Positions 30,048-52,327 of a stretch of DNA of 59,327 bases are shown here, piece by piece. Source of the DNA: a virus (Duplodnaviria > Caudoviricetes); IMG/VR virus record IMGVR_UViG_3300027741_000070, positions 1 through 59,327 of that record. One strand, written 5' to 3'. The notes beneath the pieces were generated by a model. That model did not search any database, was not told the origin of the DNA, and saw only the letters and a program-made list of their open reading frames with translations. The position numbers and the translations under genes were made by a program. Every line of letters starts with the position of its first letter. Position 1 is the stretch's first letter.

Positions 30048-30944
30048 ATGCAACATCGCTTCATTAAGACTGGCAAGGGCCGCTCGCTGGCCCGCTTCAG
30101 CACCGCCATGTTTGACTCGGTGCAAGACGGGCTGCGTTTCTACGAAACGATTTGTGCCGACGAGTCGCTGGCCCAGCGCGACATGATTGTTGGATTCAAC
30201 AACAAACACACGGCTGACTGGAGCGGCTGCGAATCGGCTGACCAGTTTGCCCACCGTGTCCGTCAGGGTTGGGTGGCTGGCGCTGACCGCCTGATGAAGC
30301 TGCCGGTTGGCGACATCTCGCCGGTGTCAATCAAGCGCCGCCGCTATCAGGGCGACCAAGGTGATGACCTCGATATCCATCGAGTGAATCGCGGCGAACT
30401 CGACACCGCTTGGACATATCACAAGCGTGATGTCAAGCGTGGCGCTGGCCGTCAGGTGACGGTTGTCTGCAACCTCGCAGCAAGCTGGCGCGTTACGGCA
30501 GAACAACTGTTCTGGCGTGGCGCTTCGGCCCTGCGTCTAGCCGAGGCTCTCGAATCGGCTGGCTACTCGGTGCGGATTGTTGCAGCGATGGCAGCGACTG
30601 GCATCGACAGTAAAGAAAATGTCGATAACGCCTACCTGTTCGAGGTTAAGTCTCTCGAACAACCGATTGATGTGGCTAATCTCGCGGCCATCCTTTGCCT
30701 GCCGGCTTACTTCCGAATCATTGGATTTGGCACGAAAGTATGGTCCTGCAACACCAACGACCTGACCGCAGACTACAGTCTCGGCCACACCTCGGATGAC
30801 CTCATCCCGAAGGCGATGGAAGAGTGGTATCCGAACGAGTACTACATCTCGCAACCTCGCACGCTTCTTTCAGAAGAAGCCGCCGCCGAATGGATTGCCC
30901 AGTCGGTTGATACCATCCAGAACCCGCAACAGCTTGCCGCGTAA
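30048..30944 (+). CDS. vWA-like partner of the MoxR/CobS ATPase
   Basis: GDDLDIHR...VTVVCNLAASW...LAEALESAGYSVRI; adjacent to the AAA+ gene as in MoxR-vWA pairs. Confidence 0.7.
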   Translation: MQHRFIKTGKGRSLARFSTAMFDSVQDGLRFYETICADESLAQRDMIVGFNNKHTADWSGCESADQFAHRVRQGWVAGADRLMKLPVGDISPVSIKRRRYQGDQGDDLDIHRVNRGELDTAWTYHKRDVKRGAGRQVTVVCNLAASWRVTAEQLFWRGASALRLAEALESAGYSVRIVAAMAATGIDSKENVDNAYLFEVKSLEQPIDVANLAAILCLPAYFRIIGFGTKVWSCNTNDLTADYSLGHTSDDLIPKAMEEWYPNEYYISQPRTLLSEEAAAEWIAQSVDTIQNPQQLAA

Positions 30945-30973
30945 GCGGCAGTTGTTGCATACAGGAGACCAGC

Positions 30974-31153
30974 ATGAGCCACGCATTCAATGATGCACAA
31001 CGCAACAAAGCGCGCCACATTCTTGAGATTTGTTTGTGTGATGTAGAGAGGGTGGAAAAGTTAGATGACCACAGCATCGACGTAATCTTGGAACTTTCCA
31101 GCATGACGGGTGTCAATGACTGGCTATTCCAGCAGGCCGTTAATCTTGAATAA
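30974..31153 (+). CDS. Early hypothetical protein (59 aa, not in ORF track)
   Basis: AGGAGACC RBS; MSHAFNDAQRNKARHILEI... Confidence 0.65.
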   Translation: MSHAFNDAQRNKARHILEICLCDVERVEKLDDHSIDVILELSSMTGVNDWLFQQAVNLE

Positions 31154-31167
31154 CAGGAGACCAACAA

Positions 31168-31419
31168 ATGAACACACTCGAACAACCCTTCGGCTGGGAA
31201 CAGTCGCAATGGGAAGCGCGTTACTGCTACAACCACAACACGCTGAACTATGACGGCAATCAGTTGCGGAATGTGCGAAGCATTATCGCTACTGCAAAAT
31301 CGTATAACGATTATTGCCTTGCCGACCCCGCCCAAGCAAACAAGTTTGCAAAACTTGTCCGTGATATTTCCCTTGAGAATCAACGCATTGCCAACAAACA
31401 GGAGAACAAAAATGTCTGA
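31168..31419 (+). CDS. Early hypothetical protein
   Basis: AGGAGACC RBS and open frame. Confidence 0.7.
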   Translation: MNTLEQPFGWEQSQWEARYCYNHNTLNYDGNQLRNVRSIIATAKSYNDYCLADPAQANKFAKLVRDISLENQRIANKQENKNV

Positions 31420-31687
31420 TTACAATTTCCCCGAATCGTATGATTCAACCGACGCTGGCCTTGCTGCCCGCCAGATTGCGGCGGCTTGGATTGAGGCCGT
31501 GCTTCGGGGTAATGCCCGAGACCTACATACAACATCGGGCTGGACCGATGCTCACCGCAATGCAGTAAAGGTAGAGCTTAAGAATTTGCAGGCTCGACTT
31601 GACCCGCAGGCTGGCGTTCTTAATCCCAACCCATTCGCCCCGCCCGAGGAACAGATTGTCAAGGGCTGGAGCGCGATAGATACCTAG
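31412..31687 (+). CDS. Early hypothetical protein (start MSDYNF)
   Basis: AGGAG RBS before ATG 31412. Confidence 0.7.
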   Translation: MSDYNFPESYDSTDAGLAARQIAAAWIEAVLRGNARDLHTTSGWTDAHRNAVKVELKNLQARLDPQAGVLNPNPFAPPEEQIVKGWSAIDT

Positions 31688-31734
31688 CCGTGGTATAAAA
31701 CCAATTCGCTTACCGTGCGGATTGGTCTCCACCA

Positions 31735-31801
31735 CGGTTTGTCGAAACGGCCTGCCTTGTGTGGGCCGTCTTACGGTAGCACCGTAACTGATGAGACACC
31801 G
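31735..31801 (+). ncRNA. Hammerhead ribozyme, type II
   Basis: Order: TGTC, GAAA, stem III CGGCCTGC/GTGGGCCG, TC, stem I TTACGGT/ACCGTAA, CTGATGA, GACA. Predicted cleavage after GTC at C31770. Confidence 0.9.
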
Positions 31802-31826
31802 CCGGTTCGCTACCGGCTTTTCTTTT
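31801..31826 (+). terminator. Rho-independent terminator-like hairpin directly after the hammerhead
   Basis: GCCGGT-TCGCT-ACCGGC followed by TTTTCTTTT. Confidence 0.7.
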
Positions 31827-31838
31827 AGGAGACCACAT

Positions 31839-32030
31839 ATGCAAGACGTTCACTTGGTTAAGATTTGGGAAGGCGGCGAATATATCAGCGCAGCATTTGT
31901 CAAAGAGTCTGACCGCGACCCAAGCATTCATACTGTTCTTGCAACGCTTTCACAAATTGAATTGGCAAGAAAACTTGCGGCAGAACTTACCGATATTGCA
32001 AACCAACTTGAGGAGACCGCAAATGTCTGA
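31839..32030 (+). CDS. Early hypothetical protein (start MQDVHL)
   Basis: AGGAGACC RBS. Confidence 0.7.
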   Translation: MQDVHLVKIWEGGEYISAAFVKESDRDPSIHTVLATLSQIELARKLAAELTDIANQLEETANV

Positions 32031-32427
32031 CATTCAAACCATTAGCACCATCGCCGCCGAGATGAGCAAGACTGTTGCCGAGGCTTGCGCCGCGATGACC
32101 GCCGCCGCTGAACAGTTTAAGGCGGCTGATACCCAACCCCCACCCGATGTTCTTGAGTCGATTCTGGCGCGTCTGGAAAAGCTGGAGAGCGCAGTTGAGG
32201 CTATTGATATGACTGTAGAGAAGATTGATTACGACGCCCTATCGGAATGCATCAACCTGTCTGACCTCGCGAATGAAATTGACCCTGCCTTGGTAGCAGA
32301 TTGGGTTGACCTTGAGGATGTCGCAAGAATGATTGACGAATCCGCCGTTGCGGAACACGTTCAGATTGACAATGTATTGAGAACGTCTATCGAAAAAATT
32401 GTTCGTGAAGTGTTGAGGGGTGTCTGA
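32023..32427 (+). CDS. Acidic early hypothetical protein
   Basis: GAGGAGACC RBS; C-terminal ID/VD-x-x-L-A helical repeats. Confidence 0.7.
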   Translation: MSDIQTISTIAAEMSKTVAEACAAMTAAAEQFKAADTQPPPDVLESILARLEKLESAVEAIDMTVEKIDYDALSECINLSDLANEIDPALVADWVDLEDVARMIDESAVAEHVQIDNVLRTSIEKIVREVLRGV

Positions 32428-32692
32428 TATGCGGGACAAGATGAAGATAACAATTTATCTGAACTTGTCCGCTTGGGATTGGGGCTTGTCTGTTGACAAG
32501 CCCCATCCCGAATCAGTAGCGCGACAAATCAATCTGGAAATATCTAGGGCAATCAACGAATCAACAAACTGGTTTGATGCCTTTGGCTTGGCAGAGAAAA
32601 CGCTGTTCAAGTTTGAACATTACGGAGCCAATGCGGCTGGCGCTCGCGCCGTGTTGGACAAAATCCTTACATACATTTACAGGGATGAGTGA
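32420..32692 (+). CDS. Early hypothetical protein
   Basis: Overlap-coupled ORF in the operon. Confidence 0.65.
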   Translation: MSDMRDKMKITIYLNLSAWDWGLSVDKPHPESVARQINLEISRAINESTNWFDAFGLAEKTLFKFEHYGANAAGARAVLDKILTYIYRDE

Positions 32693-32892
32693 TGAGAATT
32701 GTTTTCAGACAATCGGGCAATCCCAAACCTCAGTTTGAGATTGTGAAGGTTGATTACTTTGAGCCGCTCCCCGCCCGCATACAGTTCACTGCCGTTGGGT
32801 ACGAGGGAGTGCAGGAGATTCCATACAACAAGAAAAAAGAGTTGATGTGGATGGGCAAGACGTATGACTTTGTTGAAGTATTTGATAACTAA
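32689..32892 (+). CDS. Early hypothetical protein
   Basis: GTGA overlap with the previous ORF. Confidence 0.6.
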   Translation: MMRIVFRQSGNPKPQFEIVKVDYFEPLPARIQFTAVGYEGVQEIPYNKKKELMWMGKTYDFVEVFDN

Positions 32893-32901
32893 GAGGGCGA
32901 T

Positions 32902-33273
32902 ATGCAAGCATACTTTATTGATTCTGCAAACAAAACAATCACCGACGTTGAGTACGACGGTGACTACCGCAACATTTCCAAGATGCTTGGCTGCGATATG
33001 TTCACCGTTGTCAACCTTAACGAAGACGGTGATGCGCTGTTCGTTGATGACGAAGGTTATCTGAAAGACCAAGATAACCAGAATTATTTCTGGTTCGAGG
33101 GATACCCAACGATGCTGGCAGGCAACGGACTGGTACTCGGAACGGATGCAGAAGGAGAATCTATCGAACCATGCCGCCTGATTGATTGGGTGAAAGACCG
33201 CGTTCGCTTTCAAGAAAAGAACACCGCGCCTTTGTTTATCCCCGACCTTAACCCACAAATCTTTTCATTCTGA
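32902..33273 (+). CDS. DUF3846-like protein
   Basis: LFVDDEG...LAGNGLVLG.D.EGE pattern. Confidence 0.7.
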   Translation: MQAYFIDSANKTITDVEYDGDYRNISKMLGCDMFTVVNLNEDGDALFVDDEGYLKDQDNQNYFWFEGYPTMLAGNGLVLGTDAEGESIEPCRLIDWVKDRVRFQEKNTAPLFIPDLNPQIFSF

Positions 33274-33280
33274 GGGAATC

Positions 33281-33634
33281 ATGGAACAACAAATCAAAGA
33301 TGTCGAGACTATGCTTGATGAAGTACTTGAATCAATCAGGTCTCATCACGGCGAAGACTACGCAAAGTTCGTAGTCTTGATGACTAGCGTTGCACAAATG
33401 CAGGAGGCAGTAAGCTCGATTGTTTACGCCGCTCTCGATAAGGAAAACAGCGGGGCCAAGGATAAGTTTGTACAAATGAACTATGGAAAGTTCATGTCTT
33501 TAATTGCCTCCACTTGTTCGAACCTTGCACCCGACTATGGCCTAGAGGATGAGGACGAACTGGAGGGCGCATTGAAATGGGCCGCAAAGATTGTGGATAT
33601 GGCATCAGAGAAAATGGAAACGCCCTTGCAGTAA
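33281..33634 (+). CDS. Helical hypothetical protein (paralog of the next gene)
   Basis: GAGG RBS; similar to 33678-34046. Confidence 0.7.
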   Translation: MEQQIKDVETMLDEVLESIRSHHGEDYAKFVVLMTSVAQMQEAVSSIVYAALDKENSGAKDKFVQMNYGKFMSLIASTCSNLAPDYGLEDEDELEGALKWAAKIVDMASEKMETPLQ

Positions 33635-33639
33635 TCAAC

Positions 33640-33666
33640 GCGGCCTTCGGGCCGCTTAATTTTTTT
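33640..33666 (+). terminator. C(UUCG)G hairpin, terminator-like
   Basis: GCGGCC-TTCG-GGCCGC followed by TTAATTTTTTT. Confidence 0.6.
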
Positions 33667-33677
33667 GGAGACTACAA

Positions 33678-34046
33678 ATGAAAATGCCCAGCGAAGAACA
33701 AATCAAAGAAGTAAAGGAAAGCCTTGACGATATTCTTAATTCAATCGAGGTACACAAGGGCTTGGAATTTGCCATGTTTGTTCATGCAATGGTTTCATTA
33801 AAACAAATGTGCGAAGGTATTCATGTTCTTGGAAAGATATGCGAAAGGCATGAAGATAATTTTTCTGAAGAAGAAAAATTATTGGCGTCAACATTTTTGT
33901 CCATCGCTCCAGACATTTCTGTTGCCGCGTTTTCAAAGTTCGCTATTGCTGCCAAGTTTAACGATGAGCAAGCCAATGAAGTTATTGAATGGGCTGAAAG
34001 AATCGAGAGCCAAATGGATAAGGCGGCGCGAGCGCTGATGAACTGA
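33678..34046 (+). CDS. Helical hypothetical protein (paralog of the previous gene)
   Basis: GGAGAC RBS; similar to 33281-33634. Confidence 0.7.
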   Translation: MKMPSEEQIKEVKESLDDILNSIEVHKGLEFAMFVHAMVSLKQMCEGIHVLGKICERHEDNFSEEEKLLASTFLSIAPDISVAAFSKFAIAAKFNDEQANEVIEWAERIESQMDKAARALMN

Positions 34047-34073
34047 TGATAGTGACCTACAAAGGATACCCAT

Positions 34074-34196
34074 ATGTGCAAGCCAAGAAATTATTTCGTA
34101 GTCCACGCCCACCGCCGAAAGGCTGGGGCGCATGGCAAAACGCGCAAGGCGCAACGCGTAGCAGCTAAACGCGAACTTAAAAAGGAATACAAATGA
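34074..34196 (+). CDS. 40-aa basic peptide (not in ORF track)
   Basis: MCKPRNYFVVHAHRRKAGAHGKTRKAQRVAAKRELKKEYK; AAGGA RBS; ATGA overlap with the next ORF. Confidence 0.6.
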   Translation: MCKPRNYFVVHAHRRKAGAHGKTRKAQRVAAKRELKKEYK

Positions 34197-34396
34197 ACGA
34201 CAATTACAGGCGCAAAGACTTCTTTTCCCCGCGCTCAATGCGCGAGGCATTTGGTCGGGACAATTCTTTTGAGCCAGAAATCCGCTGTTGTTCCGAAATG
34301 TTTGGCGTTAAAAAGAAACGTAGGGCCATTGGCGCACCATTGCTTGCTGCGCTTTGTTTAATTGTTTGGGCGGTAATTACAAAGTTTGGACATTGA
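34193..34396 (+). CDS. Small protein with C-terminal transmembrane helix
   Basis: FSPRSMREAFG motif; hydrophobic IGAPLLAALCLIVWAVI. Confidence 0.65.
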   Translation: MNDNYRRKDFFSPRSMREAFGRDNSFEPEIRCCSEMFGVKKKRRAIGAPLLAALCLIVWAVITKFGH

Positions 34397-34417
34397 TGTT
34401 ATGATGCGCTGCACCAT
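34377..34417 (+). promoter_or_regulatory. Candidate sigma70 promoter with overlapping palindromic operator
   Basis: TTACAA-N17-TATGAT with TG extension; imperfect palindrome ATGATGCGCTGCACCAT at 34401-34417. Confidence 0.45.
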
Positions 34418-34433
34418 TTTTTAGGAGAGCATC

Positions 34434-34580
34434 ATGTTTAATTTCACTTCCGTCATCACCGAATGGTCGAAGATGTACCGCGACCTTTACAACAAAGCTC
34501 ATTCCGAGTTTGTTGAACATTGGACCAAGGCCGAGCAAAAGATTGAAGATTCTTTTAAGATTGTTTGGTGGAATAAGTAA
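34434..34580 (+). CDS. 48-aa helical protein (not in ORF track)
   Basis: TAGGAG RBS; MFNFTSVITEWSKMYRDLYNKAHSEFVEHWTKAEQKIEDSFKIVWWNK; stop abuts the hammerhead. Confidence 0.65.
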   Translation: MFNFTSVITEWSKMYRDLYNKAHSEFVEHWTKAEQKIEDSFKIVWWNK

Positions 34581-34633
34581 GTCCCTCTGAAGAGTCCTCA
34601 TTGGACGAAACCCGCTTCGTGCGGGTCAGGGAC
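34581..34633 (+). ncRNA. Hammerhead ribozyme, type I
   Basis: Stem I GTCCCT/AGGGAC, core CTGAAGA, stem II GTCC/GGAC, GAAA, stem III CCCGC/GCGGG, then TC. Predicted cleavage after C34627. Confidence 0.92.
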
Positions 34634-34750
34634 ACCCCAGCTACCTTCCGGTGCGGCTGGGGATAACATGGCAGCGCTTGCTGTAAGGCGCGAAAGCAAC
34701 ACATGGCGGGTGTACAACCGACCATGCGTCATGCAAGTAACGGAACCGGC

Positions 34751-36445
34751 CTACAAATAATCTTCGTAGTACGAGCCTGTAGCTTTTTCATACTTGAGGT
34801 TGGTTTCGCCAACCTTGCCCACCCAACGCCAGCGGCACTTCCACACTTTAATCAGGACGTTGTTAGCTTCTTGACGATGCACGGTGAGTCCGCAATCTGC
34901 CTTAGCCCACCACGCCATCGAGCCAGCAACGCTCATGCCGTCAGGAACAGGCATATCGTCACCCATCCTTAACATCTTGGCAGGGTGAGCCACAAACCAA
35001 ATGTGTACACCAGCAGACTTTGCGAACGCCTGAACCTTTGTCAGCATCTTCGAGATGGCATCGGTCTCCGTGCCTTCGCGCTGCAAGTTGATGAAGTTGT
35101 AGGGGTCAATCACAAGCCCGCGAATACCCAGCCGTTGAACTGCGCTTTGGGCGCGGTCAAGAATGCTTTCAATCGTGTTCTCACTGTTCTGGCTGTCAAG
35201 GAACACAAAGTGTTCTTTGACAAATTGCATGGCGACATTACGGTCTTCTTCCGTCATGCGTGGCGTAATGCCAGCGAAGAAAGGCTTCTTCAGATAAAGC
35301 TCGCAGAGCTTCGCAATATGCAGCGGAGGCGGGTTCTCGAACGAACAAATGGCGAACTTCCAGTCCTTGCACATGGCCAGATTGGTAAGAATCTGGTCAA
35401 CGAAGTTGGACTTACCTGAAGACGGATACCCGGTGACGATTGTTACTTGGCCGGGTACTACCGTGTAAAGCTCATCGACATTCGTATAGCCTGTCGATTC
35501 CCCGCTGCCAAAACCCTTGTTGTACAAGTCGGCAACGGCGTCGGCGTACTCTGAAGCATCGAACAAACCATCAATCGGATAAGGGGCGGCGTCTTCAACG
35601 AGTTCTTTAACCCTGTCCGAACCGTACTTGGTAAGCACATCGTTAAGGTCTTTGCACCCTTCTGGGTAGGAGATTACTCTGCACTTTGCCTTGCCAATCC
35701 GGCGGGCCAATTCTTCTTTGAGAGCCGTGCCAGCGATGTCGCCATCCGATGCAATCACGATGTATGGCGCTGCATTGATTTGTTTGTTGGCATCCCAAAC
35801 GAAGCTGAACTTGCGGTCTTCGGTTGGGTCAACACGGCCTTCGCTTACCTTGATTGGAGCGCCGCTCGGTACGGAAAGGACGTTCTTAACGCCAGCCTCG
35901 ATACAAGTAAGCGCATCAATCTCGCCCTCGACAATCACAATCGGGAGCGTCGTGTCCAAGTCATCTAACAGATAAAAGATTTGGTCGCCGCTCGTTTCCT
36001 GCGAAAAACCTTTCTGCTCAATGCTCCGGTACTTGATGTTTACAACATTGCCGCCGCGCATATATGGGAAGGCGATACATGAAACCTCGCCACCAACCTT
36101 CTGAATGTAACGACTGGTTGAGTAAAGATTTGCAGACTTTGCTGTTTGTTCTGAAATGCCGCGACTATTTAAATACGAAATTGCCTTTGGAGTCAATGAG
36201 TTACCGATAGGTTTTTCGATGGCTGACATGGCTTTCCTCGGGGTGAACTGGCGATAAGGTGACATCCCTGACCAACCGCAATGGTGACAAGTCCAGACAA
36301 TTCCATTGTCTTTGCGGTCAATGCTCAGGCACGTTTCTTTAGACTTCTTCCGCTCGGGTGAGCATGAAGGGCAAATGGTGCGGGCATGGTCACGATGCCC
36401 CAGCAGGGCAAGGACTTCGCCCGACAGGTCGGACAGAGCGCTCAT
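34751..36445 (-). CDS. Primase-helicase (T7 gp4/Twinkle-like)
   Basis: N-terminal CxxC...CxxC zinc domain, TOPRIM (IVEGEIDAL, DGDIAG, CKDLND), SF4 helicase (TGYPSSGKS, LVIDPY, VAHP). Confidence 0.93.
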   Translation of the reverse strand: MSALSDLSGEVLALLGHRDHARTICPSCSPERKKSKETCLSIDRKDNGIVWTCHHCGWSGMSPYRQFTPRKAMSAIEKPIGNSLTPKAISYLNSRGISEQTAKSANLYSTSRYIQKVGGEVSCIAFPYMRGGNVVNIKYRSIEQKGFSQETSGDQIFYLLDDLDTTLPIVIVEGEIDALTCIEAGVKNVLSVPSGAPIKVSEGRVDPTEDRKFSFVWDANKQINAAPYIVIASDGDIAGTALKEELARRIGKAKCRVISYPEGCKDLNDVLTKYGSDRVKELVEDAAPYPIDGLFDASEYADAVADLYNKGFGSGESTGYTNVDELYTVVPGQVTIVTGYPSSGKSNFVDQILTNLAMCKDWKFAICSFENPPPLHIAKLCELYLKKPFFAGITPRMTEEDRNVAMQFVKEHFVFLDSQNSENTIESILDRAQSAVQRLGIRGLVIDPYNFINLQREGTETDAISKMLTKVQAFAKSAGVHIWFVAHPAKMLRMGDDMPVPDGMSVAGSMAWWAKADCGLTVHRQEANNVLIKVWKCRWRWVGKVGETNLKYEKATGSYYEDYL

Positions 36446-38836: not shown

Positions 38837-38864
38837 TTGACACCCCGCTCGAATCTGATATATT
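38837..38864 (+). promoter_or_regulatory. Candidate sigma70 promoter for the recombination operon
   Basis: TTGACA-N16-TATATT with TG extension; ATATTGACACC occurs twice (38834 and 38860). Confidence 0.5.
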
Positions 38865-42460: not shown

Positions 42461-42549
42461 GCCAGAGTGGTGAAATCGGTAGACACAGCAGACTTAAAAT
42501 CTGCCGACCATAACAGGTTGTGCCGGTTCGATTCCGGCCTCTGGCACCA
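42461..42549 (+). tRNA. tRNA-Leu (anticodon TAA)
   Basis: Acceptor GCCAGAG/CTCTGGC plus ACCA; D loop GGTAGAC; anticodon arm GCAGA-CTTAAAA-TCTGC; long variable arm; GGTTCGATTCC. Confidence 0.95.
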
Positions 42550-44541: not shown

Positions 44542-44708
44542 CATACATTTGGTTCAATCTTTTGATGCTTCACTCAGGGCATCTATACTGGATAGATTCT
44601 TTTGAGTCGCTTTACGAATGCCAACAGATGGAAGTTTGGTATGAGGGTCAGCAGCAATACAAAACTGACAAGTTTTTTTGTCCGTTTGTTTGGGTCGATA
44701 GAACTTAA
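44538..44708 (+). CDS. Hypothetical protein (start MTYIWF)
   Basis: ATGA overlap; last gene before the convergent late arm. Confidence 0.5.
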   Translation: MTYIWFNLLMLHSGHLYWIDSFESLYECQQMEVWYEGQQQYKTDKFFCPFVWVDRT

Positions 44709-47700
44709 TCTCTAAGTTTCTTTACTTGCTCGTTGAGGCGCTTCATCTGAGCGATGATGCGGTCATTGATGCGCTTGATTTGTTCAGGATTGGCCCCGCG
44801 CTCAGTTAGGCGCTTTTTCTGTTGGCGCAACTCTTTGATGTTGTTCTCAATAGAGTTAGAGATTGGAACAAGTTTTGCCTCGGGGTTTTCTTTGATGTAC
44901 TCAAACACCGGCTCATGATTCTTGCGCCGACCTTTGATTTCATTCTCATGTTCGTTTAGGCGCGTGATGTTGTCGTAGTACCTCTGCATTTGTGCGGCGT
45001 TAGATTCTGCATTGCCATAGAACCTGCCAACCAATGGAATCTTGTACGGAGCCAACTCTTCTCCAGTAGAAATGCTGGAGACTGCTTGTGCGCCCTTGCC
45101 AATTTCACGCGCAACACCACCACCAATTTGTCCAATTACATAGTCAATCTGGTCTGGAGTCCAGTTAATACCACCCGGCTTGTACTTTGTGCCGCCGCTT
45201 GCTTTGTTTAAAAACTCTGCCATCCACTTGCTCCAAGCAGTAGCAGTGTCCTTTGTTCTAAGGTAGCCCGGCGTCGGGTCAGTAGCATTCAATTCTGGTT
45301 TGTAAATCGGGCGACCAAATGAATCTTTGTTTTCTGCAAGAGCAGCAAACGGGTCAAGCGCCGTAGGTGCAACAGTTTGTAAAGACCAGCCGCCACCACC
45401 AATCGGGTTAAACGTATCAATCACAGAACCAAAAATGCCTGTTATGTGTTTGCCGGTATCACGGAATCCACTGAGACACCATTCCATTATGTTGCGCGAA
45501 ACATTTGGAATGACGTTGTATCCCAACGGCATCGGAATAGAAATGTATTTCTTCCCGCCAACCGGGATAACAATGTTACGTTCCTTCAAGAATTCTGGCG
45601 GTTCATCTTCATCGAATCCTGCCGCAGCCAAGGCTAGAGCCTGAACAATGCCCAACAACAATCCGCCATAAATAATCTTCTTCGCCATTGGACCCCGGAG
45701 GGTTTCCAAGATGCGCGCGTTGCCCTGAACAGAGGCGTTAAAGAACGCATACAAAGCGCCCATCTGGGTAGCAATGTTGCCCTTGCGGTTGAAGTTGACG
45801 GTGATGTTCTTGGCAACACTGGCCGCCTGCTGCTTGGACAAACCTTTGTCCAGCGCGGCTTTATAAGCCGTAAGGCGAACAGCGTTTTCCATCGAGGTGT
45901 TGTAATCAGATAAGAAGTCACCTAAAGCCCGGAGCTTCGGCATAACTCCAGTGCCATCAATGCTTTTGATTTCAGTTTTGATAGCGTCAGCCCGCTCTTC
46001 AGTGCTGCTATACATACTGCGATAGCCAGTTTGACCGCCTTCCTCTTGGAGTTCTTGCCACAGCTTTGCCCATTGCGAAGCAGGCATGGTCCCCTTGTCT
46101 CGCTCTGCTCTTGAGACCTTCCAAATTGCCCCGAGCGCACCATTCAAGTTTTCCACGCTCATGACATCTTTAACTTTGTCTGCGATAGGCGTAGTAGACA
46201 AGTTAAGGGTTGCGCCTTCGATGTCGCGCAAGAAGTTAACAATACCGAATATAGGGTTGTACTGAGTATTCACCCGAGCAAACCAACGGCTAATCCCGCC
46301 CATGATGGACATGACGCGGCCAAGTTCGTCTGCATCAAGATTCTTCAATGCCGATACCATCCGTTTTGCGCGCGGGTCGTTGCTGTTAAACAACAAATAG
46401 TGATTGCGCCCGTTAATTCTGGTAGCAAGAATGTTGGGGCTGTTTAAAACATACGGGTCAATTTTGTTTGTTACAAGCCCGGTCTTATGGTCAATGACTT
46501 TTCTTGTGGGCTGCTGGAAGATGTTCTGAATATCGTTAGGGCTGATACCAAGATTTAACAGTTCATTCTGAACCTTGGACACATCTTTGATAGCCTCTGG
46601 GTCGATTGGCAACCAGAAGTCTTTGTTGGGGTTCTGAACGGCAAGACCATACACAGACTGTGCCACGCGATTCTTTTCGGCACGGATGATGGCGCGTTCA
46701 CGCTGCATGACAATGTTGGCAAAGATTTGAACAACACCGCGATTTGAACCCATTGCTCGCTTCGAGAAGTCACCTCGAATGTTGAAGCCTTGACCAACGC
46801 CATACCCAGATGTAGTTACATAGTCCGCGTCTTCGCGGAACAGCGGAACGTAGTGCGGGTAAGTCTGCTCCCACGAAGCAATTGTTTGCGGTAGCTCAAG
46901 ACCAGAATCAACAAGAACCTGACGAGTGTCACGGTTGATGTCATCCACCCGCTTTGCAATCGAATCTAATAAGCGACGACGAGCGGGCGGTATTGCATTC
47001 AAATAGTTACGAGCGGTTTGTGTCGCAATGCCAGAACCAGCATCAGGCATTGCCGGGTTAATGCTGGCAATTTGTTTGTTGCGTTCTTCTGCATGACGGT
47101 TGTGCAAGAACTCTTCAAACTCAGGGATGCTGATGTTGTGCTTTGAAAGGTCGAGCAGCAGCGGGCGAAGCTCAGTCCGCAGGAAACGCTCCGTCTGTTG
47201 TGCTGTGCGCCCGTGATAAAGCTCTTCTTGAAGATATGGATTCCATTTGTCAAGAATTTTTCCAGCAGCTTTGGTGATTTCCTGAACGACGCGTTTAACG
47301 TCAACCATCTTGTCCTGTATTTGGAAGATGGCATCGTCAGTCTTGCTATCTGTCGGCTCAGTCCAAGTGGGAAGAGTTGCCGGTTGGCCCAAAACGTTTT
47401 GCGGCAAAGCAAATTGAATTTTGTCAGAGCCAAGACCAAACTCACCATTGTTGCCAAATGCAGCTTTGATTTGTTTTGGACTAAAGACAGCTACGTTCTT
47501 GTAGAACTGGCCCTTCGTAGCTTCGGTAATAAAGAAGCCATCGAAGCCAAGACGCTTAATTGCATCAATCACTTCGCCCGTTTCAAATACAGGCCATGCC
47601 CCTGACATCAGCCTTTGGCGCAAGCCTTCCTTGCTGTACTTTTTGGGTTCAATGATTGACTCGGGCGCAACGTAGAACTCTTCTTCCGTCCCGCCGCCTT

Positions 47701-50700
47701 CACTCGGCACCTTAACGCTATAGTAAGGATGAAGGATAACCTTCCTAATATTCTGGAAGATTTTAATGTTAGCGCCCTTCATTACCTCGTCAACCAATCT
47801 GTTGACTTGCTCTTCGTTTTCGTAATCAAAAACGTTTTTTGGGTTCAGATATACCGGGTATACAACACCCTTGTTTCTATCTTCGCCAAGCTCTTCCGCT
47901 TTGTAATTGATAAAGGTATCTGCGGGAATCGGGCTGGGCGAAAAGAAGATTGCGTCAGCCGTTCCAGTCTTAAACGCTTCAATGTTTCTTGTGCTGCCGT
48001 GGTAGAACAGGCGTGGGCGACCCTCTTTGTCAACAAGCTGTCCGTCACCAAACCAGCGCCAGAAATTTCTGATGCCATCTTTGGTTGGATAGATTTGTGA
48101 GCCATTGGCATTCAATGACGGCTTGCGCTTGCCTTGGGCAAGAACGGTCATCGGCAGGGCATGACGCGGAAATCCGTTTTGACGAACAGACTTGACAAGC
48201 TCTGGCGTGACGCTGAAGCCAAGTTGTTGGCTTGTTTCGTTATCCGTTGCCCATTTGGTGGCATCACCAACAACTGGAAGCTCAACAACCTCTACCTGAC
48301 TGCCATACTTTTTGAGCAACGAGTTAAGTTTGTTGGGCAAAATTTTGCCGTAGAAGTTTTCAAACCCTTCTTTTGTACTGCCGCCATCACTTTTTTCGGG
48401 GAAACGATAGTGCGCTTGAGCCGGATTAATAAAGGCTACTTTGTCATAGCCGCCGCTAACGGCCATAGCAATAATTCTTTTTGCGGCAAGTTCAACCCAT
48501 TTGCCAGTATCTTGAACATAAGGCCCAGCCGGAACTTTTTGGACTGGCAACTCTTCTATTTTTTTATAAAGCTCTGTAATTTTATTTCTTAATTCTGAAC
48601 GCATATCTGCTTTTTCTTCAAAATCAGGAACTTTTTTACGAGCGTATTCCGCTTCAATTAAATAATCATTTATCCTGCCTTCTTCATATTGAAGTTGTTC
48701 AATTTGTAAATTGATTTTTTCTTTTTCTTTTTCTATTCTTTGGGCTTCTTCTTTTTCATCGCGTAAAACAAAACCAACATCTCGACCGCTCTGCGCCCAA
48801 TCCGATTGCACTTCTTCAACAAACAAAACATTGTTTCCAAGAACATCTTGGCGGTCATTTGTACGCAAGTGATACAACACATTGGCGTCAGGAAAGTGAG
48901 AATTGTAATAATTAAAAGCAATGTTTTTGGCTGCTGGCCCAGACAAAACAACTGGAATCTCTCGATAGTTGTCGCCGCCATCTAAAGTCCATTCTGAAAA
49001 TTTTGAATTTCCATTAGCGCCAAGACTTTCATTGGCTTCGTATGCAAGCTCTTGTTTGATGTCTTCAATGTCTTCAAACGAATCTATTAATTCGTTATTA
49101 ACGTCATACAAATCAAAGGGATAATAATTACGGTCAAACTTGTAAGCTATAAAAGAAAAGTCTTGCCCGCCAATGTTAACCACAAATTCATAAGCACCTT
49201 CAACCGGTTTGCCATTTGGGTCAACCTGCTCTGGCATTTGGTCCGTTACATCTATAACACCAATTTCAGGGCGACCGGCAGATTCATAAACCACATCACG
49301 CGGGTTATCAAAGGCTTGCAGGTAATCAACAATTTGTTTCTGCGAGACTTTGTTTTTGCCTTGGCTCATCAACCATTCATCTAGACCAGTCCAGAAGTAT
49401 TCGCCTTCTTTGCCCCCGGCTTGATTTGCGTTTGCGTTGAACCATTGCCGCCACACACCAGCCGATTGATTCTCAAGTTTGTTGGGTGCATTAACGACAA
49501 GCCGGTTGAGCGGCGAATACAGGAAGTCTTCCGCCATCACCCGTTGCGCTTCGGGCGAAAGGTTGTTGTAGTCCTCTAACGATAGAGCGTGCTTTACGCC
49601 TTCGGCTTTCTGCTCTGCGCGGGCGCCCTTCAGTTCGCCCTTCAATGCGCGTTGGAATACCTTCTCGGTGCTATCAAAGCCTTGCCCGCGCAGAGTCGAG
49701 CCCATCGACTCAAGGAACATCTTCATGCGGTTTAACAATCCTTGGATAGCGCCAGTAGGCTTGTAATCTCCGCCCATCCAGTCGCCAAACGCATCAGCGA
49801 TGGCTTCTTCGATTTGCTCTTCTTCGCTAAGATGACCATACCGCTCTTCGGTGCGGTACTTCTTAATCCATTCGCTCTTTGCCTTGCGAGTGAGGATGTC
49901 CCACTCTTTGTCGCTAAACATCCCAAGCTCACGCAAGGCGTGGACGGTTTCATGACCAAAGGTCGCCAGTACACCGCGCGTGTTATCTAAAGAAGCATGG
50001 ATGACCCGGTTAAGGTAGTAGCCATCCACCGGAGTCATCTGTCCATTGACCATGCTGGTCAATTTGTTGGAGATATTCAGCCCAATGTTTTGCAGACCCA
50101 TCTGGTCTAGAGTACCGCGCAGACGCGACGTAACCTCCTGCACCTTCTGCTGCATCTCAGGTGTGGCTTGGGGCTCAAACGTTGTTTCTGCACCTTCTTC
50201 AGTCGGAGTTTCTTCTGGCGCGAATAAGTCTTTCTGCGCCTTTCTCAGACCCTCACGATGCGGGGCTTCATCTTGATAGATTGCTTGCTGCTGTTCAAGC
50301 GAAGCGTTTTCAGCAATAAACTTTTCCGCTTCCTCGCGGGTTGCAAACGGGACTACTGTCTTCGCCGTCTTGCCCGGACGGTACTGACGAACTTCATATC
50401 CGCTTTCCTCGCCCTTCTTTTCGTTGATTGGCTTAACTTCTGTCGGGGTCGCAATCTTTTCCCGCTCTTGATTTAATTGTTCAATTTGTTGCTGTGCTTC
50501 GGCAATTTTTGCCGCAGCATTGTCATGCTCTTCAGAAAGTTTTTCATCGCTCATATCACTAGCGATGGCGATGTTCAGGTTTTCACTTACTGCCGAAATG
50601 ATTTCGTTCTGAGACTCAATCTTTTTGTCAATCTCACCAGTCATACGCTCAACACGCGCATCCATTTGGGTCTTGATGTTTTCTGCTTCTTCGGGAGTAG

Positions 50701-52327
50701 CGGCCTTGCGGGTAACGTTGATGCCGGGGTTTGTTACTTCATAGCCTTCGGCAGTAGTTTCCCCGGTCTGGCGGGTAACAGGCGAAGCATAAAAGTACGG
50801 CGTCGTCCCATCTAAGTGAGGAGCAATGCGGTCCTCTTCTTTGATGAAGCTAAATTGTGGAGCTTCTTCAGTTCCGGTGTTAACAATCTCGCCGCGACGG
50901 ATAAGCTCATTGGCTACAGCAGTTGCATCACCCTCGTGTGCAACATCATCGCCCGTTTGTTTGTTGATGTAATCCAAACCAAACGGCTTGTCTTTTTCAG
51001 CCTTTGACAAGAAGTTGTTTGCTTCAGCAGAAACCGTTTCTCCGGGAAGATTGCTGCCAAGCGGGTGTGCAATTTCAGCAACATCTGGGATGGCTTGCTC
51101 TTTTTCTTTTTCTGCCTGCGCCCGCTCTTCCATGACCTTTTGTGCGCGTTGGGCCTGAAGTGCGTTGATACCACCAGCACCACCACCCATAAGGGCGCCC
51201 ATAGCACCAGCCATACCAGCGGCAGCACCAACGCCTTGCATCGGGTCTTGTTGACCCGGCATGAAAATGTTTCCAAGGTACTGACCGCCGCCTTCTTCAC
51301 CCGCCTCAGAAAAGCCTTCACCAAAAAAACTTTTGGCAGTTTGTTTGCCAAATTGAGATGCGCTCTTGCCTAAAGTCTTGCCTGCCGCCCCAGCAACAAG
51401 TTGCTCTAAAGAGTGACCGCCGGGAACAGCGTATTGCGCTACAAGACTTAAAGCGGTGGCCGGAAGAAGAGAGCCACTTGCTGCGCCTTCAGCAACAATT
51501 CTGCGAGCATCCTCTGGGCTTGCACCTTCTTTGATGGCAGCTTGATACTCTGGAGTTTCGGCAAGTTTGCCCCCATCCATCTCCATGACGGAGTTGAAGT
51601 TTTGATTGGCTACGCTTGCACCTTGCATAGTAGCGCCACCAACAACCGTCTTGATTGTTTCTGGACCACCAAGGAACTTCATGCCTTTCTCGCCAAGAAT
51701 CTTGGCTGCGCGCTCTCCAGCGGCTTCGGCCAGTTTGGGTGCTACAGCTTTGCCAACTTTGGCAAGGCCGGTTCCCAAAAGCCTACCGCCAACAATTGAA
51801 GACAAGGCTTCCGGCCCATAGCTTGCTAAAAGTTCTGGGGTTGTGAGGGTTTCTCTGGCGGCAATCCCGGCCTCATCTAAAAGAGATGTTGACTCTTCAA
51901 GTTTCTTGGCAAGATTTTTTTGTGCTGCCTTGGATTGCTCTGAATACAAGTCTTTTTGAACATCTCGCAGAAACTTGGCATTTCCTCTCGAAATACCAAG
52001 TTTTCCAATGTCTTCAGAATATTCGGGGGCAACACCTTTCAACAAACTGGCTATTCCTTTATCGGCGCCAGTCAATCTTCCAAAAGTATCGGTTGGAGTA
52101 AATTCTGCAAATGTTTCAACAAGACTAGGAATAATTCCAGCCGTACCCACGGCAACGTCACGCAGACCGGCACCGAACGTGTATGGCTTTTTAGGAATTT
52201 CAGGCGCGGGCAGATTGATGTTTTTTGATTTAGCAATCTGACTGACGTAATCATCCACCAGATTAACTGGTACGTCGTCAGGAATACTAACCGGACCTAA
52301 TCCGGGAACATCAATATTTACAGGCAT
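44705..52327 (-). CDS. Large polyvalent (probably virion-ejected) protein: zincin-like metallopeptidase, ADP-ribosyltransferase-like and LPD38-like domains
   Basis: GHETVH (HExxH); FWRWFGD..LVDKEGRP..FYHGS...VYPVYL...GFDG...VAVFSPKQIK (ART-PolyVal-like); NITVNFNRKG...LYAFFNASVQG...IPMPLGY...ENKDSFGRPI (LPD38-like). Confidence 0.82.
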   Translation of the reverse strand: MPVNIDVPGLGPVSIPDDVPVNLVDDYVSQIAKSKNINLPAPEIPKKPYTFGAGLRDVAVGTAGIIPSLVETFAEFTPTDTFGRLTGADKGIASLLKGVAPEYSEDIGKLGISRGNAKFLRDVQKDLYSEQSKAAQKNLAKKLEESTSLLDEAGIAARETLTTPELLASYGPEALSSIVGGRLLGTGLAKVGKAVAPKLAEAAGERAAKILGEKGMKFLGGPETIKTVVGGATMQGASVANQNFNSVMEMDGGKLAETPEYQAAIKEGASPEDARRIVAEGAASGSLLPATALSLVAQYAVPGGHSLEQLVAGAAGKTLGKSASQFGKQTAKSFFGEGFSEAGEEGGGQYLGNIFMPGQQDPMQGVGAAAGMAGAMGALMGGGAGGINALQAQRAQKVMEERAQAEKEKEQAIPDVAEIAHPLGSNLPGETVSAEANNFLSKAEKDKPFGLDYINKQTGDDVAHEGDATAVANELIRRGEIVNTGTEEAPQFSFIKEEDRIAPHLDGTTPYFYASPVTRQTGETTAEGYEVTNPGINVTRKAATPEEAENIKTQMDARVERMTGEIDKKIESQNEIISAVSENLNIAIASDMSDEKLSEEHDNAAAKIAEAQQQIEQLNQEREKIATPTEVKPINEKKGEESGYEVRQYRPGKTAKTVVPFATREEAEKFIAENASLEQQQAIYQDEAPHREGLRKAQKDLFAPEETPTEEGAETTFEPQATPEMQQKVQEVTSRLRGTLDQMGLQNIGLNISNKLTSMVNGQMTPVDGYYLNRVIHASLDNTRGVLATFGHETVHALRELGMFSDKEWDILTRKAKSEWIKKYRTEERYGHLSEEEQIEEAIADAFGDWMGGDYKPTGAIQGLLNRMKMFLESMGSTLRGQGFDSTEKVFQRALKGELKGARAEQKAEGVKHALSLEDYNNLSPEAQRVMAEDFLYSPLNRLVVNAPNKLENQSAGVWRQWFNANANQAGGKEGEYFWTGLDEWLMSQGKNKVSQKQIVDYLQAFDNPRDVVYESAGRPEIGVIDVTDQMPEQVDPNGKPVEGAYEFVVNIGGQDFSFIAYKFDRNYYPFDLYDVNNELIDSFEDIEDIKQELAYEANESLGANGNSKFSEWTLDGGDNYREIPVVLSGPAAKNIAFNYYNSHFPDANVLYHLRTNDRQDVLGNNVLFVEEVQSDWAQSGRDVGFVLRDEKEEAQRIEKEKEKINLQIEQLQYEEGRINDYLIEAEYARKKVPDFEEKADMRSELRNKITELYKKIEELPVQKVPAGPYVQDTGKWVELAAKRIIAMAVSGGYDKVAFINPAQAHYRFPEKSDGGSTKEGFENFYGKILPNKLNSLLKKYGSQVEVVELPVVGDATKWATDNETSQQLGFSVTPELVKSVRQNGFPRHALPMTVLAQGKRKPSLNANGSQIYPTKDGIRNFWRWFGDGQLVDKEGRPRLFYHGSTRNIEAFKTGTADAIFFSPSPIPADTFINYKAEELGEDRNKGVVYPVYLNPKNVFDYENEEQVNRLVDEVMKGANIKIFQNIRKVILHPYYSVKVPSEGGGTEEEFYVAPESIIEPKKYSKEGLRQRLMSGAWPVFETGEVIDAIKRLGFDGFFITEATKGQFYKNVAVFSPKQIKAAFGNNGEFGLGSDKIQFALPQNVLGQPATLPTWTEPTDSKTDDAIFQIQDKMVDVKRVVQEITKAAGKILDKWNPYLQEELYHGRTAQQTERFLRTELRPLLLDLSKHNISIPEFEEFLHNRHAEERNKQIASINPAMPDAGSGIATQTARNYLNAIPPARRRLLDSIAKRVDDINRDTRQVLVDSGLELPQTIASWEQTYPHYVPLFREDADYVTTSGYGVGQGFNIRGDFSKRAMGSNRGVVQIFANIVMQRERAIIRAEKNRVAQSVYGLAVQNPNKDFWLPIDPEAIKDVSKVQNELLNLGISPNDIQNIFQQPTRKVIDHKTGLVTNKIDPYVLNSPNILATRINGRNHYLLFNSNDPRAKRMVSALKNLDADELGRVMSIMGGISRWFARVNTQYNPIFGIVNFLRDIEGATLNLSTTPIADKVKDVMSVENLNGALGAIWKVSRAERDKGTMPASQWAKLWQELQEEGGQTGYRSMYSSTEERADAIKTEIKSIDGTGVMPKLRALGDFLSDYNTSMENAVRLTAYKAALDKGLSKQQAASVAKNITVNFNRKGNIATQMGALYAFFNASVQGNARILETLRGPMAKKIIYGGLLLGIVQALALAAAGFDEDEPPEFLKERNIVIPVGGKKYISIPMPLGYNVIPNVSRNIMEWCLSGFRDTGKHITGIFGSVIDTFNPIGGGGWSLQTVAPTALDPFAALAENKDSFGRPIYKPELNATDPTPGYLRTKDTATAWSKWMAEFLNKASGGTKYKPGGINWTPDQIDYVIGQIGGGVAREIGKGAQAVSSISTGEELAPYKIPLVGRFYGNAESNAAQMQRYYDNITRLNEHENEIKGRRKNHEPVFEYIKENPEAKLVPISNSIENNIKELRQQKKRLTERGANPEQIKRINDRIIAQMKRLNEQVKKLRD

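Follow-up and report, generated by a model that had tools for sequence, protein, structure and literature searches.

What might two hammerhead ribozyme motifs of different topology be doing in one small-gene cluster of a phage genome? The question is raised by IMG/VR virus record IMGVR_UViG_3300027741_000070 (Duplodnaviria; Caudoviricetes), the whole of which (59,327 bp) was analyzed and is referred to here as the window. Its plus strand carries a type II hammerhead (HH-A) within a cluster of small open reading frames (ORFs) and a type I hammerhead (HH-B) at the end of it. An original prediction, made from the letters of this DNA, had proposed that the pair brackets a gene cassette that could be excised and circularized. 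We find it probable (roughly 80%), judging from sequence, that both are genuine self-cleaving hammerheads, each acting alone in cis on the plus-strand transcript of a hypervariable accessory-gene cluster. The motifs are plainly present, and their non-random occurrence, conservation, covariation, and gene context carry this reading.

Identification of two hammerhead motifs

Both sites hold the complete invariant core (C3 U4 G5 A6 N7 G8 A9, G12 A13 A14, A15.1-U16.1, and H17), with G10.1-C11.1 closing stem II and three helices arranged around the core. The layout of HH-A is UGUC-GAA-A15.1 CGGCC/loop/GGCCG U16.1-C17(31770), followed by UUACGG(U)-AGC-(A)CCGUAA - CUGAUGA - GACA. Its stems measure 6-7, 4, and 6-9 bp, position N7 is U, H17 is C, and the predicted cleavage lies between C31770 and U31771. 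HH-B reads GUCCCU-CUGAAGA-GUCC/UCAUU/GGAC-GAA-A CCCGC/UUCGU/GCGGG U-C17(34627) and then AGGGAC, with stems of 6, 4, and 6 bp, the core CUGAAGA, C at H17, and a predicted cleavage between C34627 and A34628. Position 7 is A, at a hammerhead position that tolerates any base. The three-way junction is the minimum free energy (MFE) fold of HH-B (z = -3.1).

Our own descriptor, which covers three hammerhead topologies, was applied to both strands of the 59,327 bp and returned exactly two matches, HH-A and HH-B. Across 200 dinucleotide shuffles the mean was 0.015 matches per window, with one match in 3 of 200 and two in none. When the whole window was scanned with 4227 Rfam families at E<=0.5, only three matches were obtained, namely a tRNA and then the two hammerheads. 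Model R2, derived from three relatives with the window left out, scored HH-A at 40.6 bits (E 4e-10) in a 1.28 Mb search, and this match is the cleanest independent test. Model R1 scored HH-B at 68 bits, but the window was among the R1 training sequences. The complete cores, the two descriptor matches, and Rfam in E-value mode bear out the two hammerheads as originally predicted, including their topologies, strand, and cleavage sites. The same holds for two other elements of that prediction, since the about ten small ORFs said to lie between the sites correspond to ten ORFs, each preceded by a Shine-Dalgarno (SD) sequence, and the terminator-like hairpins placed at 31801 and 33640 were found by a terminator scan.

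Hammerheads in related loci and their gene context

As relatives we used 80 IMG/VR loci retrieved with the primase (1.22 Mb in total). The descriptor gave 15 matches in these loci, every one of them on the operon strand, opposite to the primase, whereas extrapolation from the shuffles would lead one to expect roughly 0.3. Covariance models identified 10 type I sites in 9 loci, including one in L005 that the descriptor had overlooked, and 5 type II sites in 3 loci (L064 duplicates L062), for a total of 15 canonical sites in 12 of the 80 loci. The descriptor match at L004 12358-12414 was rejected as chance, as model R1 did not confirm it. Two further stretches were kept only as non-canonical candidates, L002 8600-8649 with an A-C mismatch at 10.1-11.1 and L044 7397-7445 with an extra U after A9.

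The gene context was assessed for 16 sites, the two of the window and 14 of the relatives, with the L064 duplicates left out. The stop codon of the upstream ORF falls between -10 and 0 nt relative to the hammerhead start in 12 of the 16, and the next SD-preceded start codon follows 18-40 nt downstream in 12 of the 16. In three copies of the module described below, the start codon is 144-156 nt downstream. The resulting picture of placement is unusually clean, with the ribozymes fitting precisely into the gap that separates a stop codon from the next ribosome-binding site (RBS). An offset of -10, found in five of the 12 sites with a nearby stop, makes the stop coincide with UGA in the CUGA core (read in the sequence in L081 only), which suggests that the stop codon may be part of the catalytic core in some copies. 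The sites at which the upstream ORF ends 10 nt inside a type I hammerhead are those of L015, L017, L018, L022, and L081.

Stem pairing was counted in two alignments. The type I covariation set comprises 16 pairs, with 99.1% of cells paired and 12 pairs changed on both sides, and the type II set 17 pairs, with 98.2% paired and 12 changed on both sides, against 30-45% paired in the slid controls of both sets; these counts lean to structure because the sets were chosen by a pairing descriptor or were model-aligned, and they represent few independent lineages.

The type II hammerhead and its 3' hairpin

HH-A is accompanied by a GC-rich hairpin with a U-tract. An equal hairpin occurs at equal spacing 3' of both type II sites of L167 and also 3' of the L180 site. 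In one of the L167 copies the hairpin stem is ACGGAU/AUCCGU, the pairing being kept through compensatory changes. Because the hairpin is conserved with this hammerhead subfamily, the apparent terminator at 31801 belongs to the HH-A element. In strain L180, which is 95-97% identical to the window, HH-A and its hairpin carry four differences. The changes include C17 to A, which is allowed, a stem I A-U to G-C compensatory pair, and one loop base; all four substitutions are compatible with function, and they provide one clean compensatory pair within a species.

A presence/absence polymorphism of g5 is located directly 3' of HH-A (window 31836-32021). About 172-186 nt holding g5 are absent from two strains, L168 and L180, and from contigs of two runs, X3 and X5, and the loss fuses the HH-A hairpin to the start of g6. 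The four DNA runs that were examined yielded strain variants and the g5 deletion only.

The type I hammerhead as part of a module with a conserved structured RNA

HH-B forms the 5' part of a module of ~170 nt, the remainder of which is a conserved structured RNA of 122-144 nt. The window sequence 34574-34753 is homologous to L001:6463-6643 and L005:7023-7209 (nhmmer E ~1e-14; ~80% nt identity each), and the structured RNA grows from 122 nt in the window to up to 144 nt in L005, in which an extra hairpin is inserted. Homologous copies of HH-B are present in L001, L005, L081, and L167-L170, and there are eight module copies of four sequence types (window/L168/L170; L001; L005/L167/L169; L081). 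The consensus fold has 27 pairs, 12 of which are changed on both sides, and 96.7% of its cells pair, compared to 20-35% pairing in slid controls. The conserved unpaired blocks include ACCUNCCGGUGC, GAAAGC, and AGUARCGRAACCGG. Because G-U pairs are conserved, the structure is assigned to the hammerhead strand. The opposite strand was rejected as the functional one, as several of these pairs would become C-A, and a coding reading (ORF 34703-34972, 'MAGVQPTMR...', shared with L001) was rejected on account of stop codons in L005 and of differences that are compensatory pairs.

The structured RNA corresponds to no Rfam family; the interval 34560-34800, scanned at E<=10, gave only two hammerhead models and no riboswitch, twister, pistol, hatchet, or other RAGATH family. 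A first pattern scan of viral contigs returned 85 stretches, of which only L081 was both new and real after an nhmmer filter. A second scan returned four, among them L166, which was rejected as a chance match, and a scan of metagenomes four more, all strains of known module types. No copy was found in the module pattern scan of 185,579 prokaryote (bacterial and archaeal) genomes, and covariance model R3 found none in 1.32 Mb beyond its eight training sequences.

The module occupies different kinds of sites. In L001 and L005 it occupies the divergent region that precedes the exonuclease/Erf operon, where it lies a few tens of nucleotides after TTGACA/TTGACG-N17 promoter-like (-35/-10) sites and is followed by an RBS and an ORF of 70-73 amino acids (aa), whereas in L081 it lies between two same-strand ORFs. 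Homologues of the 70-73-aa ORF were found neither in the window nor among the other 78 primase-related loci, and none of the small ORFs that follow the module in L001, L005, and L081 has a homologue in the window. The window counterpart of the divergent region is 68 nt long and contains a strong promoter-like site and no ribozyme. This site (38837-38864, plus strand) is the best sigma-70-like site in the 18 kb scanned, with TTGACA, a 16-nt spacer, TATATT, and an extended TG (11/12), and it lies within the 68 nt upstream of the exonuclease/Erf operon; the L001 and L005 modules are inserted immediately after its equivalent.

It is conceivable, though we would not wager on it, that HH-B serves to process the 5' end of a structured phage RNA of a class not described before, hammerhead and RNA together forming a mobile ribozyme-leader module that, once cleaved, could serve as a regulatory leader with a 5'-OH, a ligand sensor, or a small RNA in its own right. 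If so, the module would fit behind a promoter, between genes, or in the place of a terminator, and the RNA of the window would head an antisense transcript into the primase gene.

Evidence against active ribozymes

Apart from the lean of the pair counts, several observations weigh against two active and useful ribozymes in the window. The original prediction had named the Rfam hammerhead models as a check, and both sites were matched in E-value mode but neither reached a gathering threshold, a scan at gathering reporting the tRNA alone. HH-A scored 32.9 bits with Hammerhead_II (RF02276; gathering 37), HH-B 22.9 bits with Hammerhead_1 (RF00163; gathering 34), which misaligns its long stem III, and the RAGATH-1-hammerhead score was 20.7 against a gathering value of 56.3. 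Gathering is a score threshold and not a biochemical feature. Stem II of HH-A, with only 4 bp, is not in the MFE fold of 31730-31835. An HH-A homologue in L167 (10255-10306, minus strand) with the same 3' hairpin and intact stems has U at the catalytic G12, and this type II copy may be inactive. Tertiary contacts sought by eye amounted to 2-4-bp complementarities, none of which covaries; loop I of HH-A (AGC) is complementary to GCU of the 3' hairpin loop, and the type I set has a conserved U-N-A-U-U loop II. A tertiary contact between stems I and II is needed for fast hammerhead cleavage at low Mg2+, so the two motifs, for which no loop-loop or pseudoknot contact was identified, cannot be assumed to be active at cellular Mg2+. 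No significant match was obtained in the four nearest isolate genomes (0 of 4 with R1; one at 13.4 bits, E 0.08, with R2), and the two terminator-like hairpins (31801 and 33640) lie inside the presumed transcript. Lastly, HH-B of the window is the sole site of the 16 without an ORF behind it, so that it could be a relic at this location.

The Rfam scores under gathering and the lack of an identified tertiary contact would suit motifs that are chance or decayed look-alikes without cleavage. We regard this as hardly credible, given two motifs where shuffles predict 0.015, a match to HH-A by the independent model R2, stems that covary, a conserved position between genes, and every invariant core base in place.

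The isolated position of HH-B calls for a separate alternative, in which the module recombined to the junction of g14 and the primase gene, replaced the terminator there, and has no selected function, with HH-A alone being of consequence. Not only does HH-B differ from the other 15 sites in having no downstream ORF, but the module precedes an RBS and an ORF in L001, L005, and L081, and the region exchanges genes freely, as seen from the g5 indel and from the fact that only g12-g14 are common to the relatives. Nevertheless, the arrangement is intact in three strains that are 97-98% identical (window, L168, and L170), P3 differs by an A-to-G that restores a pair and by a wobble substitution, and the core is intact. 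Furthermore, no other terminator is present at this convergent junction. The terminator scan between the plus-strand cluster and the primase gene found no terminator-like site in the window, and plain intrinsic terminators (GC hairpin and T-run) occupy the g14/primase junction of the two closest relatives, L001 and L005; some 3'-end-forming element would thus be needed at the window junction. We consider a stranded relic unlikely.

No support for the pair as a cassette

The original prediction leads to a model in which a read-through fragment from 31771 to 34627 would be joined by the host RtcB ligase into a circular mRNA of 2.86 kb. The ends expected from hammerhead cleavage, a 5'-OH and a 2',3'-cyclic phosphate, would fit RtcB chemistry, and both ribozymes are on one strand, 2857 nt apart. 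The same possibility was raised for clustered phage hammerheads by Perreault et al. (2011; PMC3088659), who, in the part of their paper drawn on here, looked for circular or spliced products and detected none. In the window, the interval 31600-34800 contains 0 direct repeat families and no end-to-end inverted repeat or complementarity. A chimeric hammerhead cannot arise from the two half-ribozymes, since only 2/4 pairs form between GGAC and GACA. No RtcB or Rnl2-type ligase gene is present in this 96% complete genome, and the two terminator-like hairpins would be internal to the fragment.

The notion of a bracketed cassette as a unit is not supported either. Because HH-B follows the last ORF, g14, and faces the minus-strand primase gene, it is at the 3' end of the cluster and not between two cassettes, and it is part of a separate module. 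Conservation of the pair in related contigs, a further check named in the original prediction, was not found. Pairs recur in the relatives without being fixed. Two type I sites are separated by 0.9 kb in L007 and two type II sites by 1.6 kb in L062, and L167 combines two type II sites with a type I module; L001 and L005, whose contigs are 69% and 75% complete, yielded no hammerhead other than that of the module. A circular mRNA, if true, would be striking, but the sequence gives no support for it, and we hold circularization to be very improbable.

Predicted consequences of cleavage

For two hammerheads that act separately, we infer cleavage from hammerhead biochemistry and published tests of similar phage clusters and type II copies; co-transcription of the cluster and effects on RNA stability are presumed as well. 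HH-A would cut the polycistronic RNA between g4 and g5, which would leave an upstream mRNA whose 3' end is the stem III hairpin and bears a 2',3'-cyclic phosphate, and a downstream RNA with its 5'-OH directly at the stem I hairpin, followed by the conserved GC hairpin and U-tract. HH-B would cut right behind the last ORF, so that the operon mRNA would end in a folded structure bearing a cyclic phosphate, in the place that an intrinsic terminator takes in close relatives. It would also release a 122-nt structured RNA with a 5'-OH and would separate the coding RNA from any antisense transcript that runs on into the primase gene. Cleavage of the L001 and L005 modules would strip off a short leader bearing the 5' triphosphate and leave a folded leader with a 5'-OH. 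Because the module of the relatives lies behind a promoter-like site or between genes, before an RBS, its general job is most likely 5'-end remodelling, to judge by this placement. Stability could be affected through resistance to 5'-end-dependent RNase E entry and through the lack of a 3'-OH for polyadenylation. The two variants, type II with a hairpin and type I with a folded RNA, offer handles on whether the remodelling of RNA ends and stability is the point of these elements. Cutting of the phage mRNA without proteins, as originally predicted, is supported as an idea, but it is already the standard hypothesis for clustered phage hammerheads, as expressed in the part of Perreault et al. (PMC3088659) considered.

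Genome and surrounding genes

The window is a complete single-contig virus record (CheckV completeness 96%) of an uncultured phage, and its sequence was found repeatedly in freshwater metagenomes, none of the runs that contain it being recorded as RNA. By terminase (53-60% aa identity), the nearest isolates are phage 023Pt_psg01, phage DSL-LC04, and the Pelagibacter phages HTVC027P and HTVC023P. A DNA similarity search of 31000-35500 against deposited phages gave no match. The plus-strand cluster (30048-34580) consists of 14 closely packed small ORFs (g1-g14), of which g1 matches DUF7192 and g9 DUF3846, and the remaining ORFs no Pfam or PHROG family. Among the ten ORFs g5-g14, only g12-g14 have homologues in the relatives. 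The structured RNA behind HH-B ends 1 nt before the stop codon of the primase gene on the opposite strand. The coordinates of these features are collected in Table 1.

Table 1. Positions of the hammerheads, associated RNA elements, and neighboring genes (window coordinates unless a related locus is named).
Feature	Position	Strand	Remarks
g1	30048-30944	+	SD-preceded start; Pfam DUF7192, E 8e-33
g2	30974-31153	+	SD-preceded start; PHROG families of unknown function for the g1-g4 stretch
g3	31168-31419	+	SD-preceded start
g4	31412-31687	+	SD-preceded start
HH-A, type II hammerhead	31740-31798	+	Core and three stems read base by base; g4/g5 gap
GC-rich hairpin GCCGGU-UCGCU-ACCGGC, then U-tract; terminator-like	31801-31826 (hairpin 31801-31817)	+	Starts 2 nt after HH-A, precedes RBS
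g5-g14, ten small ORFs	31839-34580	+	Each with SD; located between HH-A and HH-B
g5	31839-32030	+	Missing from some strains
g9	32902-33273	+	DUF3846
Terminator-like hairpin GCGGCC-UUCG-GGCCGC, T-rich tail	33640-33665 (hairpin 33640-33655)	+	g10/g11 gap; terminator scan
HH-B, type I hammerhead	34581-34633	+	First base directly after g14 stop codon
Conserved structured RNA	34628-34749	+	From HH-B cleavage site; hairpins P1, P2, P3 and conserved single-stranded blocks
Cluster/primase junction	Window 34636-34663; L001 11125-11150; L005 11722-11745		Window without intrinsic terminator, L001 and L005 with
DNA primase/helicase gene, convergent	34751-36445	-	phrog_239, E 4.6e-81
ORF after module, 70-73 aa	L001 6226-6444; L005 6796-7005	-	The two copies are 42% identical

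Two other features of the genome were observed outside this region. A tRNA-Leu with anticodon UAA and a long variable arm (42461-42549, plus strand) lies within the plus-strand replication/recombination cluster. An ORF of 2540 aa (44705-52327, minus strand) matches giant phage proteins of unknown function over its C-terminal ~880 residues (phrog_14770, E 1e-207, and phrog_616).

Comparison with known hammerhead systems

Synthetic insulators of the RiboJ type place a hammerhead and a hairpin in the 5' untranslated region, remove the 5' leader, and leave an RNA with a 5'-OH that starts with the hairpin. The module of L001 and L005 resembles them in its position just behind a promoter-like site, and the two may be functionally equivalent by analogy; unlike RiboJ, the module occurs in nature, and the RNA downstream of its hammerhead is far larger and has conserved unpaired blocks. 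Retrozymes and viroid-like circular RNAs carry repeated ribozymes of one type together with end complementarity. The window pair would share with them the 5'-OH and 2',3'-cyclic phosphate ends defined by hammerheads, but it consists of different topologies, with no repeats and no end complementarity.

In terms of Rfam, the two motifs have the core, the three-way junction, and the circular permutations of RF02276 and RF00163. HH-A differs from RF02276 in its 11-nt loop III and in being without the 3' pseudoknot tail of that model, and HH-B differs from RF00163 in its 6-bp stem III, which the type I model aligns poorly.

The closest published counterpart is the set of clustered phage and prophage hammerheads of Perreault et al. 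(2011; PMC3088659). In the part of that paper considered here, these hammerheads, which belong to types I and II, occur on the coding strand at the borders of single genes or short blocks of variable genes, often of the anti-restriction type; the processing of long phage transcripts is proposed as their role, and clusters cleave in vitro and in E. coli. The window has in common with them hammerheads of types I and II on the coding strand of variable phage genes. It departs from those clusters, as far as they are portrayed in that part, in that HH-B stands at the 3' end of the operon in the place of a terminator and is fused to a structured RNA of 122-144 nt, that the type II hammerhead carries a conserved 3' GC hairpin and U-tract, and that the phage is a freshwater one near Pelagibacter phages. 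Close relatives of these hammerheads may already be catalogued in the 2011 supplementary lists. A description of the hammerhead and structured-RNA module was not found in keyword searches of open-access text, which did not cover those supplements.

Type II hammerheads near phage-like genes of Desulfovibrio vulgaris cleave in vivo, as detected by cyPhyRNA-seq (PMC8782182, in the part consulted). They share with the window the type II topology, the phage-like neighborhood, and two copies close together on one strand; the D. vulgaris copies have been examined experimentally, the window hammerheads at the level of sequence. According to the portion of a 2019 review drawn on here (PMC6765202), the purpose of such bacterial and phage hammerheads still needs additional work to define. 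The window hammerheads belong to the known class of clustered phage-operon hammerheads described in 2011, and they add an uncultured freshwater phage family, with Pelagibacter phages among its nearest isolates, to those that use hammerheads in accessory-gene operons. Two of their forms may be new variants of this class, namely a type II hammerhead with an attached terminator-like hairpin and a type I hammerhead fused to a structured RNA that moves between leader, intergenic, and terminator sites, and it is mostly the conserved RNA attached to HH-B that gives this locus its interest.

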